A DNA stretch of 64,000 nucleotides from the IMG/VR virus record IMGVR_UViG_3300028800_000071, positions 1 to 64,000 of that record. The stretch is one strand, 5' to 3'. The translations under genes and the position numbers were made by a program. The stretch's first letter is position 1. The number at the start of each line of letters is the position of its first letter. The notes beneath the pieces are model-generated. The model did not search any database. It saw only the letters and a list, made by a program, of their open reading frames with translations, and was not told the DNA's origin. This DNA is from a virus. Below, one piece after another: positions 1-49,300 of this stretch.

Positions 1-6
1 GCGTAG

Positions 7-213
7 GCAGCGGACGCTGCCTACGCTGCCTACGCTGCCTACGCTGCCTCCGCTGCCTACGCTGCCTACGCTGCCGACTCTGCCTCCGCTGCCGACGCTG
101 CCGACGCTGCCTCCGCTGCCTCCGCTGCCTACGCTGCGAAAGTGCGCGAGCAATACGGCGATCTGCTGCGGCAGAAAGCCCTCGAAGCATTGGATGCCGT
201 TTTAGCGATATGA
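7..213 (+). CDS. 3' end of a truncated ORF with Ala-rich (AAY/AAD/AAS) repeats
   Basis: Frame 1 reads AADAAYAAYAAYAASAAY...KVREQYGDLLRQKALEALDAVLAI* (TGA 211-213); the start lies outside the window. Confidence 0.6.
   Translation, partial: AADAAYAAYAAYAASAAYAAYAADSASAADAADAASAASAAYAAKVREQYGDLLRQKALEALDAVLAI
16..137 (+). repeat. 9-bp tandem repeat GCTGCC(TAC/TCC/GAC)
   Basis: About 13 imperfect in-frame copies visible directly. Confidence 0.9.
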
Positions 214-259
214 GGGCTTACATCACCCTTGCCTTTGTGGAGATAGCCTAGATGGGTGG

Positions 260-421
260 TTACGCTCTGGACGCAACAACGCGGGCCTTTGCGGCCTCGT
301 TGCAAGGCTTGCAGGTTGCCAATCCGCTTCGTGGCTTGCGCTTACCGCAGACGCAACAGAGCCCGCGCTTTATGGCACGGGCCCTGAAGGCGGCGACCTT
401 CTCGGTGCTAGAGAGGGGCAT
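260..421 (-). CDS. 53-aa basic CxxC...CxxC zinc-finger protein (not in the ORF track)
   Basis: MPLSSTEKVAAFRARAIKRGLCCVCGKRKPRSGLATCKPCNEAAKARVVASRA*; ATG directly abuts the TAA of the upstream ORF 422-658. Confidence 0.65.
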   Translation of the reverse strand: MPLSSTEKVAAFRARAIKRGLCCVCGKRKPRSGLATCKPCNEAAKARVVASRA

Positions 422-658
422 TTATAGGCAGACCTCCTCCCAGGGCTCCAATCCACCCGCCGCGATGGTTTCACGGATCTCGGCGCGTTCCGCCATGAGC
501 TTCTGGACGAGTGGTTCCGGGGCTCCCGTTTCGCGGAGAACCGCCAAGTGATGCGCGTCGGTCTGGTTATGCTCGAAGCGGGCCTTCGTGGTGTTGGGGT
601 AGGTTTCAGGCTTTCCCGAGCAGTTACAGGTGAGGGTTGCTGGCTGTGAGTTCTTCAT
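422..658 (-). CDS. hypothetical protein, 78 aa
   Basis: GGAGA RBS upstream on the - strand; coupled to 260-421; divergent from the methyltransferase. Confidence 0.6.
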   Translation of the reverse strand: MKNSQPATLTCNCSGKPETYPNTTKARFEHNQTDAHHLAVLRETGAPEPLVQKLMAERAEIRETIAAGGLEPWEEVCL

Positions 659-687
659 GTCTCCATGTTACTGTAACCAGGGGCAGA

Positions 688-1755
688 ATGTCAAGCCCTG
701 TGATCCGCGTCGTGAGTTTATTTTGCGGCCTGGGCGGCTGGGATATGGGGCTATACGCCGCCGCGGATGCGCTAGGCATCGAGGTAGAGGTCGTGGCCGC
801 TTACGACTCTTGGCCGAAAGCGGTTGAGGTTTACAACGCCAACCTCCCGCATCCCGTGGCCGAGGTGCGCGACCTCAAGCAGGTGCAGCGCGAGGACTTG
901 CCGCCGCACGACCTGGTGATCGGCGGACCGCCTTGCCAACCGTTCTCGATGGCGGGGAAGCGCAAGGGCCACGATGACGAGCGCAACTGCCTGCCCGACT
1001 TCCTGCGGCTGGTGGGCGACTCTCCCTACGTCATGGAGAACGTGGTGTCGCGGCTGATTAACGCGCCCTGGAGCGAGAAGTTATGTGCGGCAGACTTTGG
1101 GGATGTCACCTCGCGCAAGCGTTGGTTCTACTCAAACTACTTGCTGCATATTCTGCCGACGCCCGGGCCTCGCCGCATCCGCGATATACGCGACCACGCC
1201 GAAGATGAGCGCGTGCTCGTAAAGCGCGGAGTCTGTAAGGCTGGAAAGCACGGACACTACGACTCCTACGACTCCCTCGACTCCCTATCCGCACACTCAT
1301 GGCACGGGCACGACATACGGGGCAGCGGGAAGCTGTTACCGATTGGGCACAAAGCGATTTGTGGCGAAGCCGGTGTGCTTGGTAGTCTAACACGCACGCA
1401 TCATCACGGGTCGAAGAACGATGGCTACGGGCAACCCACCAAGGACGTTTATTTACGGCTCGGGCTACGCGGCAACTCGGCCTCGGCCTCGGCCTCGGCC
1501 TTCGAGGATGATGAAACGCTCGGCTCGGTTTTGGCAAACTCTTTTCACGGAAACGAAGCATCAAAACTGGTCGGATGCCGCAACCCATCGCTCCTGGAGA
1601 TGGCGCGAGCGCACAGCATCCCTGATACGTTCGATTGGTGCGGCGCAACTAAGAGCGATCGCGGAAAGATGATCGCAAATTCCGTGCCCTGCGGTATGGC
1701 CGCCGGCGTATCTTCTGCGATTCTCCGCGCTCTCACCGGAAAGGTAGCCGCATGA
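688..1755 (+). CDS. DNA (cytosine-5)-methyltransferase
   Basis: Motif I FCGLGG, catalytic GGPPCQPFS, ENV, SRKRWF, motif IX RNPSLLEMARAHSIPD, motif X IANSVP; ATG 688 preferred as start. Confidence 0.93.
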   Translation: MSSPVIRVVSLFCGLGGWDMGLYAAADALGIEVEVVAAYDSWPKAVEVYNANLPHPVAEVRDLKQVQREDLPPHDLVIGGPPCQPFSMAGKRKGHDDERNCLPDFLRLVGDSPYVMENVVSRLINAPWSEKLCAADFGDVTSRKRWFYSNYLLHILPTPGPRRIRDIRDHAEDERVLVKRGVCKAGKHGHYDSYDSLDSLSAHSWHGHDIRGSGKLLPIGHKAICGEAGVLGSLTRTHHHGSKNDGYGQPTKDVYLRLGLRGNSASASASAFEDDETLGSVLANSFHGNEASKLVGCRNPSLLEMARAHSIPDTFDWCGATKSDRGKMIANSVPCGMAAGVSSAILRALTGKVAA

Positions 1756-1802
1756 ACCTCGCCACCCTCTTTGCCGTCCTCATACTTGCGGGATGCCGAT
1801 GA
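1752..1802 (+). other. 16-aa mini-ORF that is almost entirely a lipoprotein-like signal peptide
   Basis: MNLATLFAVLILAGCR*; ATGA overlaps with both neighbours. Confidence 0.45.
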
Positions 1803-2335
1803 ACTACCGATGCGTTGTGATTGACCCGCCTTGGCCCGAGCGTGGAGCTGGGAAGGTGAAGCGTGGCGCTGACCGCCATTACGCGCTGCTCTCGGTCCAG
1901 CAAATCGTTGAACTGCTGGAAGAAGAGATCGAACCGAAACTTGCGCCGGACTGCCACTTATGGCTTTGGACGACGAACAATTATCTCGAAGCGGGGCTTC
2001 TCGTCATCAAAAAACTAGGCTTTCGGTACGTCACGAATCTTGCTTGGGTAAAAGACCGAATCGGGCTAGGTCAATACTTGCGCGGCCAGCACGAACTCTG
2101 CCTGTTCGCTGTTCGCGGCGAGGCGATGATGCCCGAGCACCGCACGACGCCGAGCGTTCTCTTTTGCCCCAAGGGGCCTCATTCGATGAAGCCTCAACTC
2201 GCGTTCGACTCGATTACGAACGTAAGCCCCGCTCCAAGGCTTGAGGTTTTCTGCCGAACGAAACGGCCCGGCTGGGATGCGTGGGGCAACGAGGTTGAGG
2301 ATACGCTGCTAACGATCGGAGAGTCCGCACGATGA
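1799..2335 (+). CDS. MT-A70 family N6-adenine methyltransferase
   Basis: IDPPW catalytic motif, LWLWTTN, GFRYVTNLAWVK, GLGQYLRGQHE, HSMKP, RLEVFCR. Confidence 0.92.
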   Translation: MNYRCVVIDPPWPERGAGKVKRGADRHYALLSVQQIVELLEEEIEPKLAPDCHLWLWTTNNYLEAGLLVIKKLGFRYVTNLAWVKDRIGLGQYLRGQHELCLFAVRGEAMMPEHRTTPSVLFCPKGPHSMKPQLAFDSITNVSPAPRLEVFCRTKRPGWDAWGNEVEDTLLTIGESAR

Positions 2336-2451
2336 CACGCCTACTCTTGGTGCTGCTCCTCACCGCCTGCCAGCCCTTTCTGCAGATTCCACCGCAATGC
2401 GGTGTGGACGTATCGCCCAGCAACTGCGCGAGCGAGAGGGGTGCGCGATGA
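2332..2451 (+). CDS. 39-aa putative lipoprotein
   Basis: MTRLLLVLLLTAC (lipobox-like)...SNCASERGAR*; ATGA overlaps on both sides. Confidence 0.5.
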   Translation: MTRLLLVLLLTACQPFLQIPPQCGVDVSPSNCASERGAR

Positions 2452-2600
2452 GTGAGGTTTGCAAAAACTGCCACGGCGCAGGTTTCACCTGGGAGGCCGA
2501 CTGTTACGACGACGGGTCGCTCTCTCGTTCCCTCTCAGCCGAACCATGCACCGAGTGCGCCCCACCCTCCACCTCAAGCGAAAGTGAAAGCGATGAGTAA
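2448..2600 (+). CDS. small zinc-ribbon protein (array unit 1)
   Basis: MSEVCKNCHGAG...CTEC..PPST; positional counterpart of 4345-4530. Confidence 0.6.
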   Translation: MSEVCKNCHGAGFTWEADCYDDGSLSRSLSAEPCTECAPPSTSSESESDE

Positions 2601-2892
2601 AGCAGACACACCGTTGACGGAACGAGTGATTGACGCGATAGAAAGCCTGGAGTGCGCTTCGGTGCGTCTACGAGAAGGCGTAGAAGGGAAGGGGCAATAC
2701 CTCGGCAGCGCAGACGCGTGCGACCGCGCCGTATCCGTTCTTCGCGCCCTCCAATCAACGCTCGATAGACTCTCTGAGCCTGGGGAGGGGTGTCGTGGGT
2801 GCGGCGGCATCATCGGACCGTATTGCGTAGAGTGTGGTGAAGCCGCCGCACAGCAACAAGCGGGTAGTCCCAAGAAGAAAAGTGAGGAATGA
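2593..2892 (+). CDS. hypothetical protein, MSKADTP family (unit 1)
   Basis: Shares MSKADTP, LQSTLDxLSEP and AAAQQQAGSPxKKSEE with 4527-4994. Confidence 0.7.
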   Translation: MSKADTPLTERVIDAIESLECASVRLREGVEGKGQYLGSADACDRAVSVLRALQSTLDRLSEPGEGCRGCGGIIGPYCVECGEAAAQQQAGSPKKKSEE

Positions 2893-2895
2893 AAC

Positions 2896-3114
2896 GTGAG
2901 TGACTCGCGCAAGAAAACGCCGATTCACGGCATCTGCACCTACAAGCCTGGCGAAATGAAGTGGTGGCGTAATCGTGTTGCGCGTGTGCTGCGCCGTTTG
3001 GCAAAGCTCGACCCCGAGAATGCCCCGACATCAAAGAACGTCGTGGAGCGATGGAGCGCGCCAGACGACGGTAAGATTTACGACCCTGGTTGGGCGAAAG
3101 GGCTTCGCAAATGA
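2896..3114 (+). CDS. small basic hypothetical protein
   Basis: GAGGA RBS; ATGA overlap with the next gene. Confidence 0.6.
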   Translation: MSDSRKKTPIHGICTYKPGEMKWWRNRVARVLRRLAKLDPENAPTSKNVVERWSAPDDGKIYDPGWAKGLRK

Positions 3115-3326
3115 GCAGAACCAACGCCCCCTACACCTCCGAGGACCTTGCTGCGCTCCCGAAGATTGCGGAGCGGTTGCGTGAGTTGCCCCCCGTTTTC
3201 GCGACTTCCCATGTCCCGATTCTGAACTGCTTTAAGACGCGACGTTGCCGGGACTGTAAAGAACGGCTTATCGCCGCCGACGCGCTTCTCAAGGCACACG
3301 CTGAGATAGTGAGGTTGCAGGGGTGA
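3111..3326 (+). CDS. hypothetical protein, YTSEDL family (unit 1)
   Basis: Shares YTSEDLxALPKIAERLR and LLKAHAEIVRLQG with 5354-5659. Confidence 0.7.
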   Translation: MSRTNAPYTSEDLAALPKIAERLRELPPVFATSHVPILNCFKTRRCRDCKERLIAADALLKAHAEIVRLQG

Positions 3327-3438
3327 AGATTATTGGAACGCCGTGCCCCTATTGCGGAGGCACTCGCGGATGCGACCGAACTTGCAACGACTGCGGGCGA
3401 ACGTCGTGACTAATCAAAGCCGCTTTGGAGGGCAAATA

Positions 3439-4047
3439 ATGGCTGCTGATTTAGTGGAGCAGTTCAGCGATGAAGAGATTGACGGCGACCTTCGCGTCCT
3501 GGCAAACACCTCTGCCTGCGTTGACCTCGGGGACGCGCGACCGTATCTAAAGCGTGTCCTCGCCACGATAGACGACCGCGACCGCGAGATTGCAGAGTTG
3601 CGGCATCAGCTAGACAAAACCGCCATCCTCGGCTTGCGTCTGTGTGACGAACGGGATGCGGCCATTCGCCGCGCCGAACGCTTTAAGCGAAGGTCCCACG
3701 ACGCAAACGCCACCATTGCAGAGTTGCGGCAGCGTGAGAGGGCGGTGCTCCTGAAAATGCAAACGATTCTCGCGTTTTGCGATGCGGCGGACGGAGCAGC
3801 CCCCGAAGATTGCTGGATGACCGTAGACGAAATCAGAATCAAGGCCCGCGAGGCGCTTAACCTTTTGAGCGACGCCATACTCGATAAGGCCCCAACAGAA
3901 GCGAAGGCCGAACCCAGTGGGTACCATTCGTGCGACGGTGCTTGCTGCGAGAAAGTACCAGGCAAATACTGCGCCGACGACGACTGCAACTGCGGAGCGG
4001 CTGGCAACCATGCAGCAGAAACGAAGGCCATGGAGGGAGAGCGATGA
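3439..4047 (+). CDS. coiled-coil hypothetical protein, MAADLV family (unit 1), Cys-rich C-terminus
   Basis: GGAGGG RBS; shares EIAELR, AELRQRER and ILDxAPT with 6326-6865. Confidence 0.7.
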   Translation: MAADLVEQFSDEEIDGDLRVLANTSACVDLGDARPYLKRVLATIDDRDREIAELRHQLDKTAILGLRLCDERDAAIRRAERFKRRSHDANATIAELRQRERAVLLKMQTILAFCDAADGAAPEDCWMTVDEIRIKAREALNLLSDAILDKAPTEAKAEPSGYHSCDGACCEKVPGKYCADDDCNCGAAGNHAAETKAMEGER

Positions 4048-4105
4048 GTGAGATTTGCCCGCAACCGTGTATCGACATCCCCTGCGCGAACGTGAGGGCC
4101 GCGAA

Positions 4106-4348
4106 ATGAGTGTGAAGCCGCCGCCGCAAGATGAAGATGGGTTGGCCGCAGAACGCCATCGAACGAATAGGGCGCGTTTACCGGAGCGCCTTCGGTGCGG
4201 GATGGTCCTTCCCACCGCACAGCTAGAGCAACTGCTCAACGAAGGCGCTGACGAGATCGAACGCCTGCGCGATGCGTATTTAGAGTTGCGTCACGATACC
4301 GCTCCCTCAACCACCAGCAACTGCGCGAGCGTGAGGGGTGCGCGATGA
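4106..4348 (+). CDS. hypothetical protein
   Basis: EGADEIERLR motif; ends SNCASVRGAR like 2332-2451. Confidence 0.6.
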   Translation: MSVKPPPQDEDGLAAERHRTNRARLPERLRCGMVLPTAQLEQLLNEGADEIERLRDAYLELRHDTAPSTTSNCASVRGAR

Positions 4349-4530
4349 GTGAGCCACGATGCGATGAGTGCGACTCACCAAACAACGTAATGACCGCGAT
4401 CTCCGACAATATTTGGATTTGCGTGGAGTGTGGCGACCGTATAGAAAGGGAGATCGAACGAATGCGGGACGGCTACCAATCTCCACCCTCCACCATAGAG
4501 AAGCCGTCTAGCGGAGGTAAAGCAGAGTGA
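4345..4530 (+). CDS. small zinc-ribbon protein (unit 2)
   Basis: CDEC...CVEC, PPST. Confidence 0.6.
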   Translation: MSEPRCDECDSPNNVMTAISDNIWICVECGDRIEREIERMRDGYQSPPSTIEKPSSGGKAE

Positions 4531-4994
4531 GCAAAGCAGACACACCGCAGCCGTTGTCGCCGGAAGAAGTCGAAGCGATACACCGCTGGCCGACCCGCGT
4601 GACCGTAAGCGGCGAAGGGCGCGTGCCAGATGCCCGCTCGATAACGATGGACGAACTTTGGTGGGTGCGCATCCTCGCCACCATCGACAACCTCCAATCA
4701 ACGCTCGATGGACTCTCTGAGCCTCGGACAAGCGATATGATGGTTCGTGTACGCGGCGACAAGACCGGCGTCCGCATCGAGGAGTACGACTCAGACGGCG
4801 TTATTCAAGACTTCGTGTTTACTCCTATAGAGGGTGAGCGATTCGCGAAAGAGATGTCTAAGGCGGCGCACGTTGCCGCGCACGCCAAACAAGCGTTGAC
4901 TGACGCCGAAGCCTCGGGCGCGCATTACTACGCGCCAGCCCTAGCCGCCGCACAGCAACAAGCGGGTAGTCCCAACAAGAAAAGTGAGGAATAG
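4527..4994 (+). CDS. hypothetical protein, MSKADTP family (unit 2)
   Basis: GGAGG RBS; anchors shared with 2593-2892. Confidence 0.7.
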   Translation: MSKADTPQPLSPEEVEAIHRWPTRVTVSGEGRVPDARSITMDELWWVRILATIDNLQSTLDGLSEPRTSDMMVRVRGDKTGVRIEEYDSDGVIQDFVFTPIEGERFAKEMSKAAHVAAHAKQALTDAEASGAHYYAPALAAAQQQAGSPNKKSEE

Positions 4995-4998
4995 AAAC

Positions 4999-5133
4999 GT
5001 GATTAGGTTTTTCGCCCGCGTGTTTTGCGGGATTTTCGGGCACCGTTACGGCCTCGCGCCGGGGTATCCATCCGCAACAGACGACCGCATTTACGAGTGC
5101 AAGACTTGGGGTTGTCGGGATTGGCACGGATGA
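4999..5133 (+). CDS. 44-aa Cys/His protein
   Basis: VIRFFARVFCGIFGHRY...CKTWGCRDWHG*; occupies the same slot as 2896-3114. Confidence 0.5.
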   Translation: MIRFFARVFCGIFGHRYGLAPGYPSATDDRIYECKTWGCRDWHG

Positions 5134-5357
5134 GCAACACCAACGCCCCCTACACCTCCAAGGCCCATTTTCATATCGTAGCGGGACCCGAGTCCCAGTT
5201 CGTTTCGTCGCCCATCGCGACGTTGCGTAAAGCAAGGAATCGTTTAGTGGCGGTAAAAAGCCCGAAACATATCGTTGAGTGTAGCGCCGCCACAAGGGCC
5301 GATTTCTGCGAAAGCGTTTTTGACGGTTCTATTCTTCGAGCGAAGGTGGTTACATGA
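5130..5357 (+). CDS. hypothetical protein
   Basis: Begins MSNTNAPYTS like 3111, then unrelated sequence. Confidence 0.55.
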   Translation: MSNTNAPYTSKAHFHIVAGPESQFVSSPIATLRKARNRLVAVKSPKHIVECSAATRADFCESVFDGSILRAKVVT

Positions 5358-5659
5358 GCTACACCTCCGAGGACCTTACTGCGCTCCCGAAGATTGCGGA
5401 GCGGTTGCGAAACAATATGCCGCACAATCATATTGGCGACCCCGCTGGACTGGGCGACCCGATTCTCTACTGCACAAGTTGTTGCGAAAGGCGCGAAGCC
5501 GCATCCGCGCTACTCAAGGCACACGCTGAGATAGTGAGGTTGCAGGGGCGGCTAACGAGCGTTACCGCGTTCGCTGATAGATGGGACGCAGACGGCGTGA
5601 TAGGCACAGCCGAGTGGTGTGAACTGCGCCAAACCGCAAGCCGCTTGGAGGGCAAATAA
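5354..5659 (+). CDS. hypothetical protein, YTSEDL family (unit 2)
   Basis: Anchors shared with 3111-3326; ends RLEGK. Confidence 0.7.
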   Translation: MSYTSEDLTALPKIAERLRNNMPHNHIGDPAGLGDPILYCTSCCERREAASALLKAHAEIVRLQGRLTSVTAFADRWDADGVIGTAEWCELRQTASRLEGK

Positions 5660-5844
5660 TGCATGAAATGACGCTTCGTTATATTGCGGGATTCTCGCTA
5701 TTGGTAGCGGTTCTGTTGGCGCTATTTTGCCCCGTAATAGCCCAGGCACTATGGATTTTGAAGAAACGTTTGGACGCTCATAGCCTACAAAAAAGCGCAA
5801 GGTATTCTCCACCCAAAGACGACCCGCGCTTGGAGGGCAAATAA
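5659..5844 (+). CDS. small single-TM protein
   Basis: Hydrophobic N-terminal half; flanked by direct repeats CGCTTGGAGGGCAAATAATG. Confidence 0.6.
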   Translation: MHEMTLRYIAGFSLLVAVLLALFCPVIAQALWILKKRLDAHSLQKSARYSPPKDDPRLEGK

Positions 5845-5984
5845 TGGCTGCTGATGAGTTTTGTAATCCGAAGAAGTTTTTATGGTGGACGTACTCGGCC
5901 CACGACTGGCAAGATTTTCAAGGCATGAACTGGGATTTGCCCGGCTATTCCCGCTGTAGACTATGCGGAAAGGAGAGCCGATAA
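5844..5984 (+). CDS. 46-aa Cys/His protein
   Basis: MAADEFCNPKKFLWWTYSAHDW...CRLCGKESR*. Confidence 0.55.
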   Translation: MAADEFCNPKKFLWWTYSAHDWQDFQGMNWDLPGYSRCRLCGKESR

Positions 5985-6326
5985 ATGGCTGCTGATTACG
6001 CCTACGCCTGGAAGAATGGCCCGCGATGGGCCTTTGAGTTTCTACGCTACCGCAAAGGGCGCGGCATTAGTTACGGTATGGCGGTGTTGGGATTCTTGCG
6101 AACACTTTGGCTGACGCTCGTCTGCGGTCATATCTGCGAAGCCTGTCAAGAGTGTGGGCGAGCGTACCTGCTTTGGTGGGCACCGGACGACCTTTACGCC
6201 ACGGTTACGGGACTAGAGAAGCGCGGCGGCTCTTATTCTCCTGGACTCTTTTGCCTCGACTGTTTCGACCGCAAGGCTAGGCGCAAAGGGATTCACCTTC
6301 GCTGGAAACCGGAGGCTTGCAAATAA
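5985..6326 (+). CDS. hypothetical zinc-binding protein
   Basis: MAAD start; CQECGR...CLDCFD. Confidence 0.65.
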   Translation: MAADYAYAWKNGPRWAFEFLRYRKGRGISYGMAVLGFLRTLWLTLVCGHICEACQECGRAYLLWWAPDDLYATVTGLEKRGGSYSPGLFCLDCFDRKARRKGIHLRWKPEACK

Positions 6327-6865
6327 TGGCTGATGATTTAGTGGCGCGGCTGGAAGCCGTTGCGGAGCGTATAGACTTTATCGCGCCCGGGATGGCGGGT
6401 TGGGACGACATGACGGAAGGTAAGATATGCCGTAAAGCCGCCATCGAGATTGCAGAGTTGCGGCAGCAGCGCGACCATGCAATAGACGAAGGCAACGCAA
6501 CGTCTAAACTTTACGCAGAGTTGCGGCAGCGTGAGAGGGGCCTGCGCCGAGAGCGGATTACAGGCAAAGAATACGTCGAAGCGTCAGAAGCCATTTTGAC
6601 TGAACTTAAGTACCAGGATAGTCTTGAGCGCAGAACAGACGATGAGGCCAAAGACGTTCCGGGATTTCTCACTCTGCTCCGGCGGTACACCCGCATAGTT
6701 GAAGACTCTTGGTCTGATAATCCTGGGACCCCGCAAGAAGATGGCTCCGTACAGGTGGAGCAGGCGTTACACGGATTGCGAAAACTAGCGGCCATTTGTG
6801 TTCGAGCCATGATATATAACGGCATACGAGCCCGCGACATACTCGATGAGGCCCCAACAGCATGA
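6326..6865 (+). CDS. coiled-coil hypothetical protein, MADDLV family (unit 2)
   Basis: Anchors shared with 3439-4047. Confidence 0.7.
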   Translation: MADDLVARLEAVAERIDFIAPGMAGWDDMTEGKICRKAAIEIAELRQQRDHAIDEGNATSKLYAELRQRERGLRRERITGKEYVEASEAILTELKYQDSLERRTDDEAKDVPGFLTLLRRYTRIVEDSWSDNPGTPQEDGSVQVEQALHGLRKLAAICVRAMIYNGIRARDILDEAPTA

Positions 6866-6962
6866 GTAACACCTTTCTCCGCGCTCTCGACCACGGTGGC
6901 GAACCGAGCGATGCGGAAGTGGAAGCCTTCATTGTCGTCGCAAAGCGACGGGAGAACATTGC

Positions 6963-7277
6963 ATGACCGACGGCCATAAGATCGGCGCCGAGATCGAAGC
7001 CATACTCAAGAAGCACGTCGGAAAGTTAATCAGCGCGAGCGAGCACGACGTTCTCAAAGCACGCATCCGCGACGAAGTGCTCGACTATCTTCGCGGGCAT
7101 TACACGCCGATCAACTTCGGCGCCAAAACCCTCGACGACGTGGACGTAACGTTCAATAACGATCCGGCGGTACTCGCGGCGGGCGTGCTCGATCTCCGGT
7201 TCGTGCCGGCGACCGAACGCGGCCGCCAATGGCTCGCGTCGTTAATGGCGCAGGAGGGCGGCAAGACGACCGAGTAA
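6963..7277 (+). CDS. hypothetical protein
   Basis: GGAGA RBS; first gene with the high-GC codon style of the main genome. Confidence 0.7.
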   Translation: MTDGHKIGAEIEAILKKHVGKLISASEHDVLKARIRDEVLDYLRGHYTPINFGAKTLDDVDVTFNNDPAVLAAGVLDLRFVPATERGRQWLASLMAQEGGKTTE

Positions 7278-7331
7278 ATCCACGGAAATCAGTAGTGCCG
7301 CCCGAAAGGGTGTGAGCCAAGGGAGACCGAC

Positions 7332-8285
7332 GTGGACGGCGACGATCAACCGACGAGCAATCGTTCATCATTGGACGACGCGAGCTCGTTTTACGACCTA
7401 GACCATTCGTGGAAAGGCACCAAGCTCCCAAGCGGCGGCGGCATCGACGCCTTCTTCGCCCCCCTGGTCAAACAGCACAACGACGCCCTGGCCGACGAAA
7501 TGAAGCGCCAGGGCGTTTCGCGTCCCGAGGATATCCGCACCACCAACCGGGGCGCCTACGAGAACGTCGAAGCCCGGCAGCGCCAGCTGCAAGCCGAAGG
7601 CTACACCATGGCCGAGGCCCGCCAGATCGCCCGGGACGAAAACCCGCAGGCCATCGCCGATACCGAGAAGGCGACCGATCCGATCGGCGACCGAATCGAA
7701 AACATTATGGGCGTCAACCGGCGCGTCCATGCCGGCGGCGGGGGCGGCAACGTCACGAAGATCAAGCAAGAGCCGATCTTCGAGCCCTGCAAGACCTGCG
7801 GCGGCCACGGCGTCGATCTCAAAGCCGCAGCGGCCATGCCGAAAGATCGGCGCTTCGCCCTCGAATCGTTGCCGGTCTGCATCAAATGCAAAGGCGAAGG
7901 CAAGGTCAAGGTCGGGAGCCGCACCGTCATGGTGCAGTTGCTCGGGGCCAAGTCGGCCGGCGGCGGGGGCGGCAGCGGCGGCGGCAAGATGAAGCGCGAC
8001 AAGAAAGGCGGCGCAGCCTACGGCGAGGGGTACATTCTCGCCTCCTACGGCGGCCGCTACGAAACGATCGAAGAAGAACCCCGCACCGAATTCCGAACGG
8101 CACGCGTCACGCAATCGACCGACGAAGTGCTCGACGAGCTCGAACAGGAGACCGGCGTCAACACCGCCGGCCTTTTAGCTGCGGTCGCGACGTTGCGCAA
8201 GAAGTGCCACGATCCCAACGCTCAGATCGCGCTCGCTATGCTGCTCGGCGTCGCGCCGGCGCCCAAGCAGCGCCGCGCCTCGTGA
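7332..8285 (+). CDS. CxxCxGxG zinc-finger protein, possible late regulator
   Basis: CKTCGGHG and CIKCKGEG; AAGGGAGA RBS. Confidence 0.6.
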   Translation: MDGDDQPTSNRSSLDDASSFYDLDHSWKGTKLPSGGGIDAFFAPLVKQHNDALADEMKRQGVSRPEDIRTTNRGAYENVEARQRQLQAEGYTMAEARQIARDENPQAIADTEKATDPIGDRIENIMGVNRRVHAGGGGGNVTKIKQEPIFEPCKTCGGHGVDLKAAAAMPKDRRFALESLPVCIKCKGEGKVKVGSRTVMVQLLGAKSAGGGGGSGGGKMKRDKKGGAAYGEGYILASYGGRYETIEEEPRTEFRTARVTQSTDEVLDELEQETGVNTAGLLAAVATLRKKCHDPNAQIALAMLLGVAPAPKQRRAS

Positions 8286-8498
8286 ATGCCGCCGCCTGAT
8301 CGGAAGATCTTTGGGATACCGGATGGGCGACACAATAGCGATTGGTGGGACGCCGATCATATCGTGCCGATCATCGAGGGCGGCAAGAACGAGCTCGCCA
8401 ACCTGCGCACGCTCTGCCTCGCGTGCCACCGAGGCCACACCGCAGCGCTCGCGCGACGCCGAGCCGACGCGCGCAAGGGAAAGATCGCGTTACTGTGA
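8286..8498 (+). CDS. HNH endonuclease (short)
   Basis: DADHIVPIIEGGKNELANLRTLCLACHRGHT. Confidence 0.8.
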   Translation: MPPPDRKIFGIPDGRHNSDWWDADHIVPIIEGGKNELANLRTLCLACHRGHTAALARRRADARKGKIALL

Positions 8499-8648
8499 TC
8501 GCCTGGCCGTGGTTGGTCTTTGCCTTTTACGTCGGCGTCGTGGTTGGCGCTTGCGTTGTCGATGAATTGAAAATCCGTAACGATCGCCACTAAAGGAAGC
8601 GCGTCTCGGAAAACGCCGGGCTGAGACTTTCGATCGGCAATCGAATGC

Positions 8649-8678
8649 TTGACAGACACGCCAGCGCCAGGTTAGTAT
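8649..8678 (+). promoter_or_regulatory. sigma70-like promoter
   Basis: TTGACA (8649-8654), 18-bp spacer, TAGTAT (8673-8678) in an intergenic gap. Confidence 0.65.
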
Positions 8679-8725
8679 CAGCGCCAGAGGCCGAGCCCTC
8701 GACCGTGTGTCACACGGAACTCACG

Positions 8726-8758
8726 AACGGAACTGCGTAGCGGGTCCGTTTTTTGTTT
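8726..8758 (+). terminator. intrinsic terminator
   Basis: AACGGAACTGC-GTA-GCGGGTCCGTT followed by a T-tract. Confidence 0.65.
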
Positions 8759-8806
8759 AACGTTGAACGCAGGGAGCAAGCGGCGTTTCACGGTAACAGC
8801 GTTGAT

Positions 8807-9103
8807 ATGCGTGCGTGTAGCCGTTGCCAAGGGCCTCACGATCGAAACGGTCGATATTGTCGCGCTTGCCATGCGGAATATATGCGTACGTGGCGCCTTT
8901 CTCACCCATTAAAAGGCGAGCAGCGACGTAAAGATATCGCGCGAGCGTATGCAAACGTTTATCAGCGGCGCGGTCATTTGAAGCCGCGGCCGTGCGTCGA
9001 TTGCGGCGACCCGAAGTCGCAAAAGCATCACGAAGATTACAGCAAGCCGCTCGACGTGATCTGGCTCTGCCGATCTTGTCATCTAAATCGACACAAAGTT
9101 TGA
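8807..9103 (+). CDS. HNH-like endonuclease
   Basis: CVDCG...KHHEDYSKPLDVIWLCRSCH. Confidence 0.75.
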   Translation: MRACSRCQGPHDRNGRYCRACHAEYMRTWRLSHPLKGEQRRKDIARAYANVYQRRGHLKPRPCVDCGDPKSQKHHEDYSKPLDVIWLCRSCHLNRHKV

Positions 9104-12425: not shown

Positions 12426-12702
12426 CGTGATCGGCCGGCACGTTGCCGCCTATGCCGATGCCGAGAACCCGGGCGACTTTTGGTTTCGACCTGGCTACAG
12501 CGATCGGGTCATCATGATGCTCTCGTACTTGTGTCCGCAATGCGGCGAGCTTCGGTGCGTGCCGATCTCGCTCTCGCCGGCGACGAATCGGTGGGATTGG
12601 GATGGCGAGTACGATCGCCCAACGCTCAAGCCGTCGATCCGTCAAATGGACGGGTGCCAATGGCACGGATGGCTCACGAAAGGCATCTGGGTAACGGCGT
12701 GA
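12418..12702 (+). CDS. DUF6527-like Cys/His/Trp protein
   Basis: CPQCG...WDWDG..PTLKPSI...CQWHGWLTKGIW. Confidence 0.65.
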   Translation: MTNVIGRHVAAYADAENPGDFWFRPGYSDRVIMMLSYLCPQCGELRCVPISLSPATNRWDWDGEYDRPTLKPSIRQMDGCQWHGWLTKGIWVTA

Positions 12703-14135
12703 TCGTTCGCCTGCAACACCTGCCGGCGCAAGACGACTTCTACAACGCGCAAGAAGATCAGATCTCATTCATCGGTGGCCTCGGCTGCGGCAAGACGCGC
12801 GTGGCATCCGACGACGTACTGCGCACCGCTGCAATGTATCCGCATTGCGGTAAAGGCGAGCGCACACCCGGCATTGCGATCTGCTCGAACACCTTTCAGC
12901 AGCTGATCGACGGTACGATGGCCACCTTCTTCGAGCGATGCGAGGAGAATTGGAAGGTCCATTATGTCGACCGCATCCGCGCCGAGCACAAGATCTACAT
13001 AAAAGAGTTTGACGCCTGGATCGGCGTCTATTCGGTTGACGAACCCGACAAGTTCAAATCGTACGAGTTCTGCTACATTTGGATTGACGAAGCGCAAGCC
13101 GACACGTGGAACAAGCCGGCCTACGACAAACTGATCGGCCGTCTGCGTGGCACCGTACGCCAACGCAAACTCTATCCAGACATGGAACTCCGCGTACGCA
13201 TCACGGCTAACCCGCCGTGGACAATGGATCATTGGCTCGTTGATCTCAACACCAAGAAGAATGCCGAGACCGGCCGCGCGCCGTCACGGCTGATCACCGC
13301 GAGCACGTACGACAACCCGTTCTTGCCGGCGCAATACATTCAGCGCCTCAAAGAGAACTTCGACCCCGAGCTCGCCGAGATCGAAATGGGCGGCAAGTTC
13401 GGCGATATCGGCTTCGGCCGCATCTTCCGCCGCTTCTCCCGCAGCAAGCACGTCTTTGATGCCGAGCGCGCCGAGAAGTATGGCCTGCCGCCGATCGTCG
13501 CCGACCCGAACCTGCCGATCTGCTGGTCGCACGACTTCAACGTCGATCCGCTCTGCTCGGTGATCTTCCAATGGCGCCGTATCAGAGTGAACGGCTTCCA
13601 ACGCGTGGTCATGTACGTGCTGGACGTGATGCAAATCCGTAACTCGCTCGTGGAAGAAGCCGTCAAAGAGTTTCTCAATCGCCGGCCGTACGTCAAGATC
13701 GCACGGCGCCGTGGTTTGATTCTGTACGGTGACGCCACCGGCAATACGCAAACCAACCGGCAGACCGGCCTTACGGACTTCGAGGCGCTCACGCAAGAGC
13801 TCGAACGCAACGATCTCTGGGGTTCGATCGGGCAGAAGCAAGTCGGCATAGCGAACCCCGAGCGCATCGCTCGGTACGCCGCCGGCAATCGGATGCTCGA
13901 AGATTCAACCGGCAAGATCGGTGTCGTGATGAACGAAGGCACGACCGAACCGCTGGTCATCGACCTGGAACGAATGTTCTACAAACCTGGAACTCGCAAC
14001 GTCGAGATTCCCAAATACAAAGATGGCAGACCCACGAAGCTCTTTACTCACTTGGCAGACGCGTTCTCGTATCCGATCGCACAGGACTTTCCGGTGCGCG
14101 TAATCGAGAGCGCCGAGCCTACAACGTCGAGGTAA
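12699..14135 (+). CDS. terL: terminase large subunit
   Basis: Walker A GGLGCGKT, Walker B YIWIDEA, TANP, nuclease DFNVDP and HLADAFSY; GTG 12699 overlaps the upstream stop. Confidence 0.93.
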   Translation: MIVRLQHLPAQDDFYNAQEDQISFIGGLGCGKTRVASDDVLRTAAMYPHCGKGERTPGIAICSNTFQQLIDGTMATFFERCEENWKVHYVDRIRAEHKIYIKEFDAWIGVYSVDEPDKFKSYEFCYIWIDEAQADTWNKPAYDKLIGRLRGTVRQRKLYPDMELRVRITANPPWTMDHWLVDLNTKKNAETGRAPSRLITASTYDNPFLPAQYIQRLKENFDPELAEIEMGGKFGDIGFGRIFRRFSRSKHVFDAERAEKYGLPPIVADPNLPICWSHDFNVDPLCSVIFQWRRIRVNGFQRVVMYVLDVMQIRNSLVEEAVKEFLNRRPYVKIARRRGLILYGDATGNTQTNRQTGLTDFEALTQELERNDLWGSIGQKQVGIANPERIARYAAGNRMLEDSTGKIGVVMNEGTTEPLVIDLERMFYKPGTRNVEIPKYKDGRPTKLFTHLADAFSYPIAQDFPVRVIESAEPTTSR

Positions 14136-14142
14136 AACAATC

Positions 14143-15042
14143 ATGGACGGCAATATCGGCAACGATTTCAACGAGCAGATCAAGGAAGGGCTCGAGGATC
14201 AAGAAGGCGTCGGCGACAATCAGGTCACGGACGGCACCGGCGTTGAGAGTGCCGATCAGACGCAAGACCGGCTTCGTGGCGAAGGCCCCGGCGCGCAAGG
14301 CGACGGTCCCCAGGAAGATGACCCGATCACCGGCCGGCAGGGCATCGATCGGCCTTCTGCCGGTGCCAAGAGCGGTGCAGAGACCGAGTACGATCCCAAC
14401 CGCGCCAACGCGGCCGGAATGGGCGAAGGCGCCGGCCATGCGCCGGTCCCGCACGAGCAGGACCGCACCCGCGACAAGGTGATCGAGCTCAATCCCGACG
14501 AGACCGAGCGCACCGATGCCGACACCGGCTTCGACGAGATCGACAACGTGCGACCGGGTGACGCCGCCGCCGACGAGCTCGGCGAGCGTAGCGGCTATCT
14601 CGGCCAGGATCGCACCGAGGATGCCCCGGGTGGTCCGCTCGTCGATCACACCGCCTTCGGCGAGAAGCTCATGCAGATCGCCAAGTTGTTCGTCACGCAG
14701 TATTCGGTCAATGCCTTCGGTTGCAAAGCGGCGATCGACAAATACATGGCCGAGCATCACCTCGCCGGCAGCACGCTCATCACCGAAAACACCAACACCA
14801 ACGCAACGGCGCCGGTGATCAACGTCACGGTCATTCTCGACGACGAGCAGCACCTGTTCTACGTGTCGCTCAAGCGCGGCGATCAAAACCTCGTCGGCGA
14901 AGCCGTCGTGTTGCACGACAACACCGAAGGCAAAGACGGCGTAGTGGTCGACAAAAGCGGAGATCCGTTGCATCGGTACGTTGACCGCCCGGTGACTACG
15001 AGCCCCGGCGGCCCGCACGAGCACCCGCCGTACGATCGGTAA
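14143..15042 (+). CDS. acidic low-complexity hypothetical protein
   Basis: D/E/G-rich N-terminal half; GAGG RBS. Confidence 0.7.
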   Translation: MDGNIGNDFNEQIKEGLEDQEGVGDNQVTDGTGVESADQTQDRLRGEGPGAQGDGPQEDDPITGRQGIDRPSAGAKSGAETEYDPNRANAAGMGEGAGHAPVPHEQDRTRDKVIELNPDETERTDADTGFDEIDNVRPGDAAADELGERSGYLGQDRTEDAPGGPLVDHTAFGEKLMQIAKLFVTQYSVNAFGCKAAIDKYMAEHHLAGSTLITENTNTNATAPVINVTVILDDEQHLFYVSLKRGDQNLVGEAVVLHDNTEGKDGVVVDKSGDPLHRYVDRPVTTSPGGPHEHPPYDR

Positions 15043-46015: not shown

Positions 46016-49000
46016 ATGGCGATCTCGTTCGTCCAAGCCGCTCAAGGCGCGGGGTTCGGCGTCGTTCTCGGTGCGGCTCCCGTGAAAGGCAACCTCTTAC
46101 TCGCCGTTGCGGTCAATAACGGCTCGACGCCGACAGCCAATACGGGCTGGACGAGCATCGACACCCTCAACCTCACGCAAGACGGCATTTCGCTCTATAA
46201 GATCGCTGGTGCGGCCGAACTCTCGACGCAGACGCCGATCGCCGGCACGTCGAGCAACGTTTCGGTCTACGAGTTCCACGCCGATCGCGGCTTTGCGGCC
46301 AATCCGGTCGATGACCATTCCGTGCGCCAAGGCGCACCGGCTACGCCGCCGACGTGCGTTTCTAACGGCGTAAACCCGACCAAGCCGATCAACGGAATGC
46401 TGGCGGTGTTTTACTCTACGTCGAGCGCCGATACGGCGCCGACGGCTGTTTCGGGCATGACCGTGCAACTCACGTTGAGCGGCGGCGCGACCGGCAACGG
46501 CGTCGGCTGTTATCAGATCGGCGTCAACGGCGAACACGTCACAAAAACAGCGACGTGGACCGGCTCAACGAGCGCATCATCGTGCGCCTTTATCATCGTC
46601 TTTTACGAGCAGACGGAAGTCACGCTCGTGCAAGCCGCGACGGCCGTCGGCACCGGCGTCACGTTCGGATCTGCGCCGACGCAAGGCAATCTGCTCGTCG
46701 CCGTCTGCTTCAATAGCGGCACGCCGGCGCTCGGCACAGGCTGGACGAATATCGACAATCAGGCGAGTTCGCCCAATAGTCGATCTATGTATAAGATCGC
46801 CGGGGCCGGCGAATCGACGACACAAAGTCCGACAAGTACGGCGACGAGTACGCTCATGGTCGCCGAGTTCAACGCCGTGAGCGGACCATTTACGGCAGCG
46901 AATCTCGACGTACATGGCGTGACGCGCGTTGCGACGGCAAATCCACCGAGCGTCACGTCCGGTGCTCTTACGCCATCGAAGGTCAACGACTTCGCCATCG
47001 TTGTCGCGTGCGATGCCGGTACGGCCGACGCTGCGCCGACGGCGATCACCGGCATGGTCACGCTCGTTGATATGCCAGGCACCGGCGGCAACGTCGGTAT
47101 CGGCTTTGCGGCGTGGACGGTCAATACGGGCACGGGTTCGTTTACGAAAACCGTCACGTGGGGTAGCGGCACAACGTCGGCGAGCGCCGTTCACGTCATG
47201 ATCTTTACGGTGCCGGGCTATACTTCAACGCCGTCGGGATCTGTGACGGGCGCGGGGGCCGCCAATCGCGCCGATAAGGCGGTGCGCACCGGCAGCATCA
47301 CGGGAGCCAGCGCGCTCTCGCGGGCGATCGCTCATGGTCTGACGGCCTCGATCACGGCCGTGAGCTCCGCGCTCCGATTCGTCGCAAAGATATTGCCCGG
47401 CGCGTCGATGACGCCGACCGGCACGGCGACAAAGCAGGCGCAACTGCCGGTTGCAGGCAGCGTCACGGGTGCAAGCTCGTTCGTGCGCGCAACCTTTGCA
47501 CAACTCGCTGGAAGCGAAACGCCGGCCGGAACGTTCGTGCGTTTCATTCAGCGCGTGCTCACGACGGGCTCGATCACGGGTGCCGGCGCCGCTTCAAAGC
47601 AGACGCAGGTGCCGGTGGCCGGGTCCGTCACGGGCTCGACTTCGATGCTGCACGCCATCGGCGCGCTACTCAGCGGCAGCGTCACGGGCGCGACCGGATT
47701 CGTTCGCTCGACGTTCCGTAAACTCACCGGCAGCGAGACCCCCGCCGGCGCGGCTACGCGTGCGATCGCGCGCGCCTTTACTGCGGCGAGCATCACGGCA
47801 AGCTCGGCTCTGGCCACCGGCAAAGCCTTCGTGCGATCCTTGACGAGTTCGATCACGGGCACGACCGGCTTCGTTCGCTCGACGTTCCGCAAGCTCACCG
47901 GCAGCGAAACGCCAGCCGGCGCGGCTGCGCGTGCGATCGCGCGCGCGTTCACGGCAGCGAGCATTACAGCCACGTCGGCGCTGGCCACCAGCAAGTCTTT
48001 CCTCCGATCATTCACGGGTTCGATCACGGGCTCGAGTTCGATGCTACACGCCATCGGTGCGCTTCTCAGCGGCAGCGTCACGGGCACGAGCTCGATGAAC
48101 CGCTCGATCGGCGCGAAGCTCACCGGAAGCATCACGGATGCCGGGACGTTCATCCGATCGACCGTCGCGAAACTTACGGGCAGCGAAACTCCCGCCGGTG
48201 TCGTCGCGCGCGCGATCGCCCGCACCTTCGCCGCGGCGAGCATCACGGCGAGCTCGGCTCTGGCCACCGGCAAGGCGTTCGTTCGATCGTTCACCGGCTC
48301 GATCACCCCGGCCGGCTCGATCAATCGGTTCACGACGGCGCTGATCTCGGGCAGCGAGGCCGCTACGTCGTCGCTCAACCGCTTCACGGCGCGTCTTGAG
48401 GCCGGGAGCATTACCGGGGCCGGCACGGCTCACAAATCGACCGGAACGGTCGAAAGCGGCAGCATCACGGATGCCGGGGCGATCGGCAAGCAGACGAAGG
48501 TGCCCGTGGCGGGCAGCGTCACGAGCTCGGGAACGCTCAGGCGCTCGATCTTCGCCTTGCTCGCGGCCAGCATCACGGCGGCCAGCGCGATCCGGCGCGC
48601 GTCGACCAGGGCGCTCGTCGCCCAGGTTACGCCGCAGGGCGGGCTCGCCCGGGCGATCGGCGCGGCGCTCGCGAGTGCCAGCATTACGGCACAGTCGCTG
48701 CTTACGTCCAATCGTGCCATCATCCGCAACTTCACGGCGTCGATCGCGCCGAGCGGGACGATCGGCAAAGCCGTCAGCGCGCTACTGAGCGGCAACGTGG
48801 CGCCGGCGACACACCTCCTTCGCTCGACGGTCGTACAGTTCGGCGGCCAGATCACCGCAACGGCCGGCATCGTCCGTACGACGGTGCTCAATATCGCCGG
48901 CAGCATCGCGGCCGCTGGCACCATTGCTCGTGGCCGTATCAAGAACTTCACCGGCTCAATCACCGGGCAAGGCGTGCTCGCCGACCGCAAGGCGATCAAC

Positions 49001-49300
49001 GTCATCTTCAACGCCGTGCTTGCGCCGCAGGGCACGATACGTCGGTCGATCCGCAAGGCGTTCGCGGCCGTCATTGCGGCCGTCGGGTCGCTTCGCAATC
49101 TGTTCTATCACGCGCCGCCGGCCATCGTGCTCGATATTGCGATCATCGCGCCGACGGAGATCAGCGCCTCGATTCTCGCGCCGACGGTGATCGGCGCACC
49201 GATTCTCGCGCCGACGACAATCAGCGCACCGATTCTCGCGCCGACGATGCTTGAGCTCGATATTCCCGGCGCCATCATTCTGTCGGTTTCGGGGGACTAA
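46016..49300 (+). CDS. 1094-aa repetitive fibre-like structural protein
   Basis: Two tandem N-terminal domains (VQAA..FG..P..GNLL..GWT.ID..YKIAGA), many approximately 19-aa GS[IV]T repeats, C-terminal I[IL]APT x4. Confidence 0.75.
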   Translation: MAISFVQAAQGAGFGVVLGAAPVKGNLLLAVAVNNGSTPTANTGWTSIDTLNLTQDGISLYKIAGAAELSTQTPIAGTSSNVSVYEFHADRGFAANPVDDHSVRQGAPATPPTCVSNGVNPTKPINGMLAVFYSTSSADTAPTAVSGMTVQLTLSGGATGNGVGCYQIGVNGEHVTKTATWTGSTSASSCAFIIVFYEQTEVTLVQAATAVGTGVTFGSAPTQGNLLVAVCFNSGTPALGTGWTNIDNQASSPNSRSMYKIAGAGESTTQSPTSTATSTLMVAEFNAVSGPFTAANLDVHGVTRVATANPPSVTSGALTPSKVNDFAIVVACDAGTADAAPTAITGMVTLVDMPGTGGNVGIGFAAWTVNTGTGSFTKTVTWGSGTTSASAVHVMIFTVPGYTSTPSGSVTGAGAANRADKAVRTGSITGASALSRAIAHGLTASITAVSSALRFVAKILPGASMTPTGTATKQAQLPVAGSVTGASSFVRATFAQLAGSETPAGTFVRFIQRVLTTGSITGAGAASKQTQVPVAGSVTGSTSMLHAIGALLSGSVTGATGFVRSTFRKLTGSETPAGAATRAIARAFTAASITASSALATGKAFVRSLTSSITGTTGFVRSTFRKLTGSETPAGAAARAIARAFTAASITATSALATSKSFLRSFTGSITGSSSMLHAIGALLSGSVTGTSSMNRSIGAKLTGSITDAGTFIRSTVAKLTGSETPAGVVARAIARTFAAASITASSALATGKAFVRSFTGSITPAGSINRFTTALISGSEAATSSLNRFTARLEAGSITGAGTAHKSTGTVESGSITDAGAIGKQTKVPVAGSVTSSGTLRRSIFALLAASITAASAIRRASTRALVAQVTPQGGLARAIGAALASASITAQSLLTSNRAIIRNFTASIAPSGTIGKAVSALLSGNVAPATHLLRSTVVQFGGQITATAGIVRTTVLNIAGSIAAAGTIARGRIKNFTGSITGQGVLADRKAINVIFNAVLAPQGTIRRSIRKAFAAVIAAVGSLRNLFYHAPPAIVLDIAIIAPTEISASILAPTVIGAPILAPTTISAPILAPTMLELDIPGAIILSVSGD

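Follow-up and report, generated by a model that had tools for sequence, protein, structure and literature searches.

In the lambdoid phages, conserved boundary ("linker") sequences lie at gene junctions, as set out in the modular theory of Susskind and Botstein and in comparisons of the HK620/HK97 type. In Neisseria pilE/pilS and Borrelia vlsE, one expression site is varied by unidirectional gene conversion from silent, truncated donors. T4-type phages carry PeSL elements, intergenic motifs of ~100 bp with an early promoter and a stem-loop terminator, which flank ORFans in hyperplastic regions and whose recombination inserts, deletes, or replaces small genes and carries the expression signals along (PMC2839356, PMC4122927). 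In the T-even adhesin gp38, conserved glycine-rich motifs separate hypervariable segments, and crossovers fall near the motifs (PMC3157838). Phage annealases recombine short, diverged homologies, ~100-bp intragenic exchanges being frequent (PMC3945230), and Sak4 anneals single strands (PMC5928155). Here, we describe an array of small genes in a window of 64,000 nucleotides (nt), bases 1-64000 of the 80,795-base IMG/VR virus record IMGVR_UViG_3300028800_000071, in which two tandem units are alike only at short blocks of DNA that we call anchors. The array was probably built by homology-driven modular shuffling at conserved junctions and motifs, and not by a dedicated diversity machine.

Within 2417-6865, the array holds 17 small plus-strand open reading frames (ORFs) of 21 to 202 amino acids (Table 1). 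Stop and start codons overlap or abut at nearly every join (translational coupling), and the GC content by codon position is coding-like, with a third-position value of 0.62 compared with 0.73-0.78 in core genes. Repeat search, exact-word scan, and self-blastn of the entire 80.8-kb record recovered the anchors and agreed that the two units match only at colinear short blocks, as the original prediction, made from the bare sequence, had proposed. Both of the units it delimited were recovered, with the correction that unit 2 ends at 6865, the stop codon of 2h, and not at 6860. Eleven anchor types of 18-60 nt occur in the same order in both units at 88-100% identity. Exact runs of at least 14 nt common to the two units number 19, and 16 of these form a single colinear chain; 200 dinucleotide shuffles put the chance level at 0.04 on average and 2 at most. 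The longest exact common word is 36 nt, and most are no longer than 33 nt. The prediction had placed many anchors inside genes. This is true of about half, while the others are gene junctions made up of a Shine-Dalgarno sequence, stop and start codons, and first or last codons. The peptides it quoted as examples were all correct on translation.

The sequence between the anchors is unrelated, again as predicted. Seven of the eight inter-anchor segments scored like shuffled sequence at both the DNA and the protein level (z < 2), the middle of gene d being the sole place with marginal similarity (z 2-3), and the interiors of units 1 and 2 differ several-fold in length. In the seven in-frame anchors, compared over 4-7 instances with unrelated flanks, the third codon position was invariant at 69 of 78 sites, and variable columns numbered 9, 3, and 9 at codon positions 1, 2, and 3. 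Plain divergence after duplication is therefore insufficient, which had also been claimed. Since silent sites would be free under peptide selection alone, their invariance together with the re-use of modules described below indicates that the anchors share recent ancestry by exchange.

Related DNA was found in one further IMG/VR record (L007/L008/L017) and in four Joint Genome Institute (JGI) metagenome contigs (L013-L016), and flanks were counted across this record (G000), L008, and L013-L016. Every anchor had more than two flanks, with two to seven distinct sequences on the left and on the right: A4 has four left and three right flanks, A7 four different flanks per side, and A10 seven distinct flanks per side. 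Neither of the two results named beforehand as refuting the prediction was obtained, given the lack of homology in seven of the eight interiors and these flank counts. In L008, L013, L014, and L016, blocks of similarity to this phage end on anchors, and overlapping block ends fall inside A4, A9/A10, and J2 (A8). Modules that lie between the anchors are found again in these contigs, differently combined, at 85-100% nt identity. L014 has one unit (a-b-c-d'-d-e-f-g), after which comes the MSNTFL gene. This unit is built from allele 1b at 96%, alleles 2c/2d'/2d at 90%, and the N-terminal part of 1f at 100% over 172 nt; the crossover between its 1b and 2c alleles lies within A4, and its f gene equals 1f minus exactly 126 nt between two AELR direct repeats. 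In L013, the end of the C5 methylase gene runs into 1g/1h (97%), after which come an a and a b gene that are both new and then 2c-2d (99.4%), and 1798-4050 is missing, the gap being bounded by junction-type sequences. L016 holds two to three tandem units with 1b (97%), 2g (85%), and 2e-2f (99.4%) amid new modules, and L015, from another sample, has the same variant as L016 over the first unit, until the contig ends. The 1b allele adjoins different a and c genes in L014 and L016, and the N-terminal part of 2h is present at 98% in L008. All of the mosaic ORFs (20+) remain open.

The flanks of L008, L014, and L016 gave no tblastx hit of at least 38 bits to any part of the 80.8-kb record, so the modules are common to phages that are otherwise unrelated in the compared sequence. 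The neighbors of the L016 array are genes for a helicase, a pyrophosphohydrolase, a dTMP kinase, and ThyA (thymidylate synthase). We also compared contigs from four sequencing runs with window 1500-7500. This exact variant is present in them at a depth of 2-8 and a more abundant relative at 20-30. The contigs of the relative join the anchors in other orders, leading for example from 2890 to 6090 via 305 other letters, from 6463 back to 3712, and from 3908 to 4107 with 16 other letters.

The junction anchors carry translational signals. A1 (J1) holds the last ~10 codons of the upstream gene (..SNCAS[E/V]RGAR and stop), followed by a Shine-Dalgarno sequence and by ATGAGTGAG, with which gene a begins. 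The same tail closes four unrelated upstream proteins (window 2332-2451 and 4106-4348; L013:202-447; L014:56-295), among them a membrane-type protein and the C terminus of a larger L014 protein, because the junction cassette of the next gene is embedded in the 3' ends of those genes. A4 comprises the C terminus AAAQQQAGSPxKKSEE with its stop, then a spacer and the GTG codon at which gene c starts, and A4, A5, and A7 each span a stop, a ribosome site, and a start. A7 is the C terminus of 1d plus the ribosome site of 1e, and the 2d frame continues 36 residues further. A8 (J2) reads ..LEGK and stop, GGAGGG, then ATGGCTGCTGAT (MAAD..). J1 and J2 occur four to five times each and delimit the extra genes 1g and 1h (J1-type) and 2e, 2f, and 2g, the latter stacked as whole genes between J2 copies in unit 2. 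A5 and A6 are contiguous in unit 1 (3111-3181) and apart in unit 2, where the extra gene body 2d' sits at the duplicated word CTACACCTCC and splits them. A9 occurs in six instances that are identical at 18/18 nt and have six different right flanks; it shares with A10 a 14-17-nt direct repeat, spaced by 126 nt in unit 1 and 63 nt in unit 2. In unit 2, A11 continues into the stop/start junction with gene 6862-6966. The start of this first post-array gene (MSNTFLRALDHGG..) is also present in L008 and L014, and ..FIVVAxRRENIA with its stop and ATG forms a further anchor, whose second occurrence is at genome 79127-79170.

Table 1. Coordinates of the array, its genes and anchors, and other features (window positions unless marked; for anchors, unit 1 / unit 2)
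Feature	Position	Strand	Identity	Remarks
Unit 1	2417-4313	+		ORF map, translations
Gene 1a	2448-2600	+		unit 1
Gene 1b	2593-2892	+		unit 1
Gene 1c	2896-3114	+		unit 1
Gene 1d	3111-3326	+		unit 1
Gene 1e	3323-3409	+		unit 1
Gene 1f	3439-4047	+		unit 1
Gene 1g	4044-4109	+		unit 1
Gene 1h	4106-4348	+		unit 1
Unit 2	4314-6865	+		ORF map, translations
Gene 2a	4345-4530	+		unit 2
Gene 2b	4527-4994	+		unit 2
Gene 2c	4999-5133	+		unit 2
Gene 2d'	5130-5357	+		unit 2
Gene 2d	5354-5659	+		unit 2
Gene 2e	5659-5844	+		unit 2; membrane helix
Gene 2f	5844-5984	+		unit 2
Gene 2g	5985-6326	+		unit 2
Gene 2h	6326-6865	+		unit 2
2h interior (residues 66-172)	6521-6841	+		stand-alone ~100-amino-acid protein elsewhere
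A1 (J1)	2417-2456 / 4314-4353	+	98%	weaker copies 4035-4058, 4075-4114
A2	2597-2613 / 4531-4547	+		gene b start, M/V-SKADTP; colinear block 2599-2613 / 4533-4547
A3	2748-2784 / 4691-4727	+	95%	in-frame LQSTLDxLSEP within gene b
A4	2841-2899 / 4943-5002	+	97%	third copy genome 79785-79844
A5	3111-3147 / 5130-5166	+	89%	MSxTNAPYTS
A6	3131-3181 / 5359-5409	+	98%	YTSEDLxALPKIAERLR
A7	3273-3323 / 5498-5548	+	92%	LLKAHAEIVRLQG
A8 (J2)	3422-3460 / 6319-6347	+		extra copies 5642-5661, 5827-5865, 5984-5997
A9	3585-3615 / 6445-6475	+	90%	EIAELR within 1f and 2h
A10	3715-3751 / 6515-6548	+	88%	88% and 25 nt exact for block 3718-3751 / 6515-6548; AELRQRER
A11	3873-3898 / 6835-6860	+	92%	ILDxAPT near C terminus of 1f, 2h
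Downstream junction genes	6862-6967	+		MSNTFLRALDHGG.., conserved start of first post-array gene
C5 cytosine methyltransferase	637-1755	+		Pfam PF00145; upstream of array
MT-A70 adenine methyltransferase	1793-2335	+		Pfam PF05063; upstream of array
HNH endonuclease	8286-8498			
Large terminase	12480-14135			

Three small-protein families carry in-frame anchors: b (MSKADTP..LQSTLD..AQQQAGSP), d (YTSEDL..LLKAHAEIV), and f/h (MAADLV..ELRQRER..ILDKAPT). The f/h family bears out the idea of combinatorial small proteins, since its parts are found recombined. It numbers only 13 clusters in a set of 5.8 billion proteins, and searches of IMG/VR and of 185,579 species genomes yielded no further record and no hit, respectively. 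The N-terminal part MAADLV..AERIDFIAPGMAGWDD.. is paired with four different C-terminal parts, and the C-terminal part ..AVPKASPRK.. with two N-terminal parts (three counting an insertion variant); members have zero to three extra segments between repeated AELRQ words and five different tails after ILDKAP. An AlphaFold model of one member (pLDDT 77, pTM 0.37) shows a long helix of 50 residues, whose most confident center is ELRQRER, and a second helix that ends with ILDKAP. As modeled, such a rod should be tolerant of segment swaps that keep the frame.

The interior of 2h has a different origin. Its relatives form at least 70 clusters at 48-73% identity, mostly of 98-106 amino acids, and it stands alone in numerous phage or metagenome contigs, L006 among them. 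The interior was captured, not diverged. Among named proteins, it most resembles MazG-type pyrophosphohydrolases, a resemblance that serves only as a lead, and there was no match among PDB sequences. Ten larger array proteins searched against Pfam and PHROGs gave nothing above threshold; for 2a alone there were weak hits of the zinc-ribbon or DksA-like kind, none of which reached it. Paired CxxC motifs are present in many array products (1a, 1b, 1e, 2a, 2f, and 2g). The array probably encodes accessory or host-takeover proteins that act early and are under pressure to diversify.

A further, partial variant lies outside the window at genome 78.7-80.8 kb. Here, one gene ends ..FIVVARRRENIA, like the window gene at 6862-6966, a separate 71-amino-acid gene holds LQSTLD (the A3 word, genome 79297-79319), and a different 72-amino-acid gene ends AQQQAGSPKKKSEE. 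Motifs that are united in gene b of units 1 and 2 thus sit in separate genes at the record end. The last 1004 nt of the record (genome 79792-80795) equal window 4950-5953 at 99.9%, up to the record end, the sole difference being an Asn/Lys codon in the AQQQAGSPxKKSEE anchor. The 2c-2f block, found at 99.4% in L013 and L016, thus has another copy here. When the head and tail of the record were compared as alleles by tblastx, only the anchors and this 1-kb repeat were found. The repeat may be a true second locus, or the assembler may have gone round a circular or multi-strain graph and left it as a trace; in the latter case there is a single locus, with 1-4949 and the stretch before 79792 as its alternative left flanks.

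What could recombine the modules? The eleven anchors have no common core and share no k-mer beyond the control level, all repeats in the array are direct, and the 80.8-kb record contains no RVT_1 match for a reverse transcriptase and no tyrosine or serine recombinase, which extends to the whole record the earlier statement that none was in view. These absences rule out the known site-specific and retroelement diversity systems and indicate homology-dependent exchange. A diversity-generating retroelement was rejected for lack of a reverse transcriptase in the record and because the interiors are wholly different and unequal in length, not point-mutated; a shufflon, invertase, or integron was rejected on the missing tyrosine or serine recombinase, the missing common core site, and the exclusively direct repeats. 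Nor is there a silent-cassette/expression-site layout, and gene conversion of the pilE/pilS type was rejected, as there are no silent, promoterless, partial donors and the 17 ORFs, which have ribosome sites and whose stops and starts are coupled, are all complete. It had been suggested that the rest of the genome be searched for annealing proteins. Such a search found, outside the window, two general recombination genes, for a Sak4-like annealase (AAA_24, PF13479) at genome 66493-67488 (42 bits against a cut-off of 27; phrog_124) and for a RusA-like resolvase at genome 71605-72321.

We hypothesize that this is a hyperplastic early-gene array, whose building blocks would be modules of 40-350 nt, whole tiny genes or gene parts, drawn from a pool common to other phages of the same habitat and separated by conserved DNA of 18-60 nt, either translational-coupling junctions or short in-frame motifs. 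Homologous recombination or single-strand annealing would cross over inside the anchors, either when different phages infect the same cell or between the repeats of a single genome, and the same crossovers would keep the anchors identical at silent sites. The outcome would be allele swaps, insertions, deletions, gene fusions or splits, and the tandem stacking of whole units. At no position do units 1 and 2 have the same allele, which leaves the anchors as their sole matches. The enzyme may be the putative Sak4-like annealase of the phage itself, acting with RusA, or the RecA of the host; when exchange occurs and whether it brings any benefit we infer. The sub-gene shuffling system of the original prediction is thereby upheld insofar as anchors act as recombination joints, and set aside insofar as there is no sign of a dedicated system.

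Several points weigh against modular shuffling. All evidence comes from metagenome assemblies and not from clones or long reads of single molecules, and some of the mosaic joins could have been created by the assembler where an anchor is as long as its word size or longer. Recombination is deduced here from sequence patterns, and the enzyme is a guess. Silent-site conservation could come from an unrecognized function at the DNA or RNA level. Direct repeats of 20-60 nt beside an encoded annealase ought to be unstable, and keeping two full units may need selection that the shuffling model leaves unexplained.

That the units are old paralogues, saturated since an ancient tandem duplication except at motifs under purifying selection and never recombined, is extremely improbable. 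Anchors do encode conserved peptide motifs, ELRQRER lies in the confident helix core of the f/h model, and a faint similarity persists in the middle of gene d (z 2-3). However, third codon positions are conserved like first positions (9 variable columns of 78 each), identical modules stand in other combinations in other contigs, the 2h interior is a different, stand-alone protein family, and the interiors differ in length by several-fold. Very unlikely, too, is an assembly artefact in which strain variants were strung together, with units 1 and 2, or the record-end copy, never on one molecule. In its favor, the last 1004 nt repeat the window stretch at 99.9%, as if a circular or multi-strain graph had been traversed two times, several variants coexist in the samples at depths of 2-8 (this one) and 20-30, and no single run contig spans the region whole. 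Against this, shared words of at most 36 nt would be short for graph collapse at usual final word sizes; one run contig matches 4305-4557 without mismatch, including 9 1h-specific nt before A1, which counts only weakly, and another ends at 4305; L015 and L016, from different samples, carry the same variant array (L015 over the first unit); and the ORFs are intact and coupled at every junction. Concatenation of units 1 and 2 by the assembler, which had been named as the chief alternative, is unlikely on the strength of the short words, the arrays in two samples, and the 4305-4557 contig, and the population-level mosaic stands even if the artefact were true.

We also consider unlikely a selected diversity-generating architecture, in which the anchors are evolved handles and the tandem units a stored cassette library that allows frequent re-assortment of small early proteins, for example in anti-defence or takeover, in a pilin- or vls-like manner with every copy expressed. 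Twelve colinear anchors in 2 kb with silent sites fixed, several tandem alleles kept in at least two unrelated phages (G000, L016), intact frames in all 20+ mosaic ORFs, and an annealase encoded in the same genome would fit such an architecture. On the other hand, no dedicated enzyme adjoins the array, the anchors have no common core, the copies show no silent/expressed distinction, and the variation is seen between contigs or samples and not within one clone. Ordinary homologous recombination with survival of in-frame products gives the same pattern, and the motifs also look structurally important, ELRQRER being at the best-predicted center of a long helix in the model, so that constraint at the protein level explains their persistence. 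It is similarly doubtful that the anchors are maintained handles of a cassette exchange network among unrelated co-infecting soil phages, with the tandem units as an allele library. If true, the locus would be a homology-based, enzyme-generic analogue of the integron that works below the gene level, and sub-genic modules of early proteins would be traded and stacked at high frequency.

Searches for other signals and relatives of the anchors were negative. There was no promoter-like plus-strand site between 2400 and 6900, terminator-like hits in this interval were at the shuffle level with none at anchors, and Rfam gave nothing on window 1-9000. An exact scan of IMG/VR for A6 found no other record. 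The 19-nt J2 core was found in four viral contigs, which were rejected as relatives: they are unrelated phages (the match being, e.g., the start of a gene for single-stranded-DNA-binding protein, SSB), and the match is a matter of chance or a convergent ribosome site.

The source is an uncultured tailed phage of rhizosphere soil. Its record is of the linear class with a CheckV completeness estimate of 83%, the sequencing runs that hold parts of the array region are all rhizosphere metagenomes from 2019, with no RNA run listed among them, and blastn of 2300-7000 against 50,697 deposited phages found no similar DNA. Plus-strand ORFs of structural size form a long block up to ~52 kb, and there is a minus-strand block that includes a sliding-clamp-like gene. 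The record begins within a tandem repeat (window 1-150; ~63-nt period, 87.8% between copies) that translates, depending on the frame, as GSVGSx or RRQ repeats and probably explains why the contig starts there. Direct repeats (72-92% identity, ~170-450 nt apart) at window 47620-48860 lie inside a 1094-amino-acid ORF (46016-49300), which probably encodes a tail-fibre-like protein rich in repeats. An inverted repeat of 73 nt at 77% identity (window 14177-14248 and 54490-54561) connects the start of the post-terminase gene with the minus-strand block. Outside the window, repeats with an 18-nt period extend over ~1 kb (genome 75,450-76,450), each unit being an 8-nt variable word followed by a ~10-nt repeat that ends GAGCCA or GAACCA. 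They are followed by a 282-amino-acid protein (genome 76,492-77,340) that matches phrog_4285, "transposase" (2.8e-50), and weakly also the IS110-family Transposase_20 domain. A link between these repeats and the anchor region was rejected, as 44 parsed spacers hit 2301-7000 4 times compared with 6.2 expected.

It is an old argument whether phage mosaics arise from homologous exchange at conserved linkers or from random joints plus selection. In this argument, the locus is a natural case, and a very clean one, in favor of linkers. It offers many joints in a few kb and near-identical alleles across otherwise unrelated phages, and the case also rests on the exact repeat-to-repeat deletion and the in-frame capture of a foreign domain. 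The process can work inside genes, making small helical proteins from interchangeable parts. Anchors and alleles together form a concrete set for testing the minimal homology needed by phage annealases in nature. The mechanism is already known, and the value of the locus is that of a model case, not of a new principle.

Compared with the known systems, the array matches boundary mosaicism, of which it has the conserved border DNA, the breaks of similarity on anchors, and the same module with different neighbors. Like the lambdoid linkers, it has short conserved boundary DNA between non-homologous genes, with mosaic joints there and, probably, exchange by homologous recombination. In contrast to them, it is far denser, with modules of 40-350 nt and half of the anchors intragenic and in frame, it stacks alleles in tandem, and its partner phages have no other detectable similarity. 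Like PeSL, the array repeats flank ORFans in a plastic region and mark insertions and deletions; unlike PeSL, the anchors have no promoter or terminator, those at junctions serve as signals for translational coupling, and many others lie inside genes. With gp38, the array has in common short motifs in fixed order, swappable segments between them, and a restricted palette of alleles per segment, but gp38 is a virion adhesin that determines host range, whereas the array proteins are small, helical, cysteine-rich, and probably early, and whole genes are exchanged too. The short conserved segments among variable mini-cassettes and the variant copies in tandem recall pilE/pilS and vlsE, from which the array differs in that all copies are full coupled ORFs and the variation lies between genomes. 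Relaxed homologous recombination by Redbeta, RecT, Erf, and Sak4, as the driver of mosaicism, provides a mechanism for short or diverged homology (PMC3945230, PMC5928155); in comparison with these characterized annealases, the enzyme of this genome is a predicted one, a sequence match with an E value of about 1e-10. What sets the array apart from the lambdoid linkers, PeSL, and gp38 together is its density, its tandem alternative alleles, and the exchange between otherwise dissimilar phages, and the novelty lies in this unusually fine-grained, dense form of known phage mosaicism.

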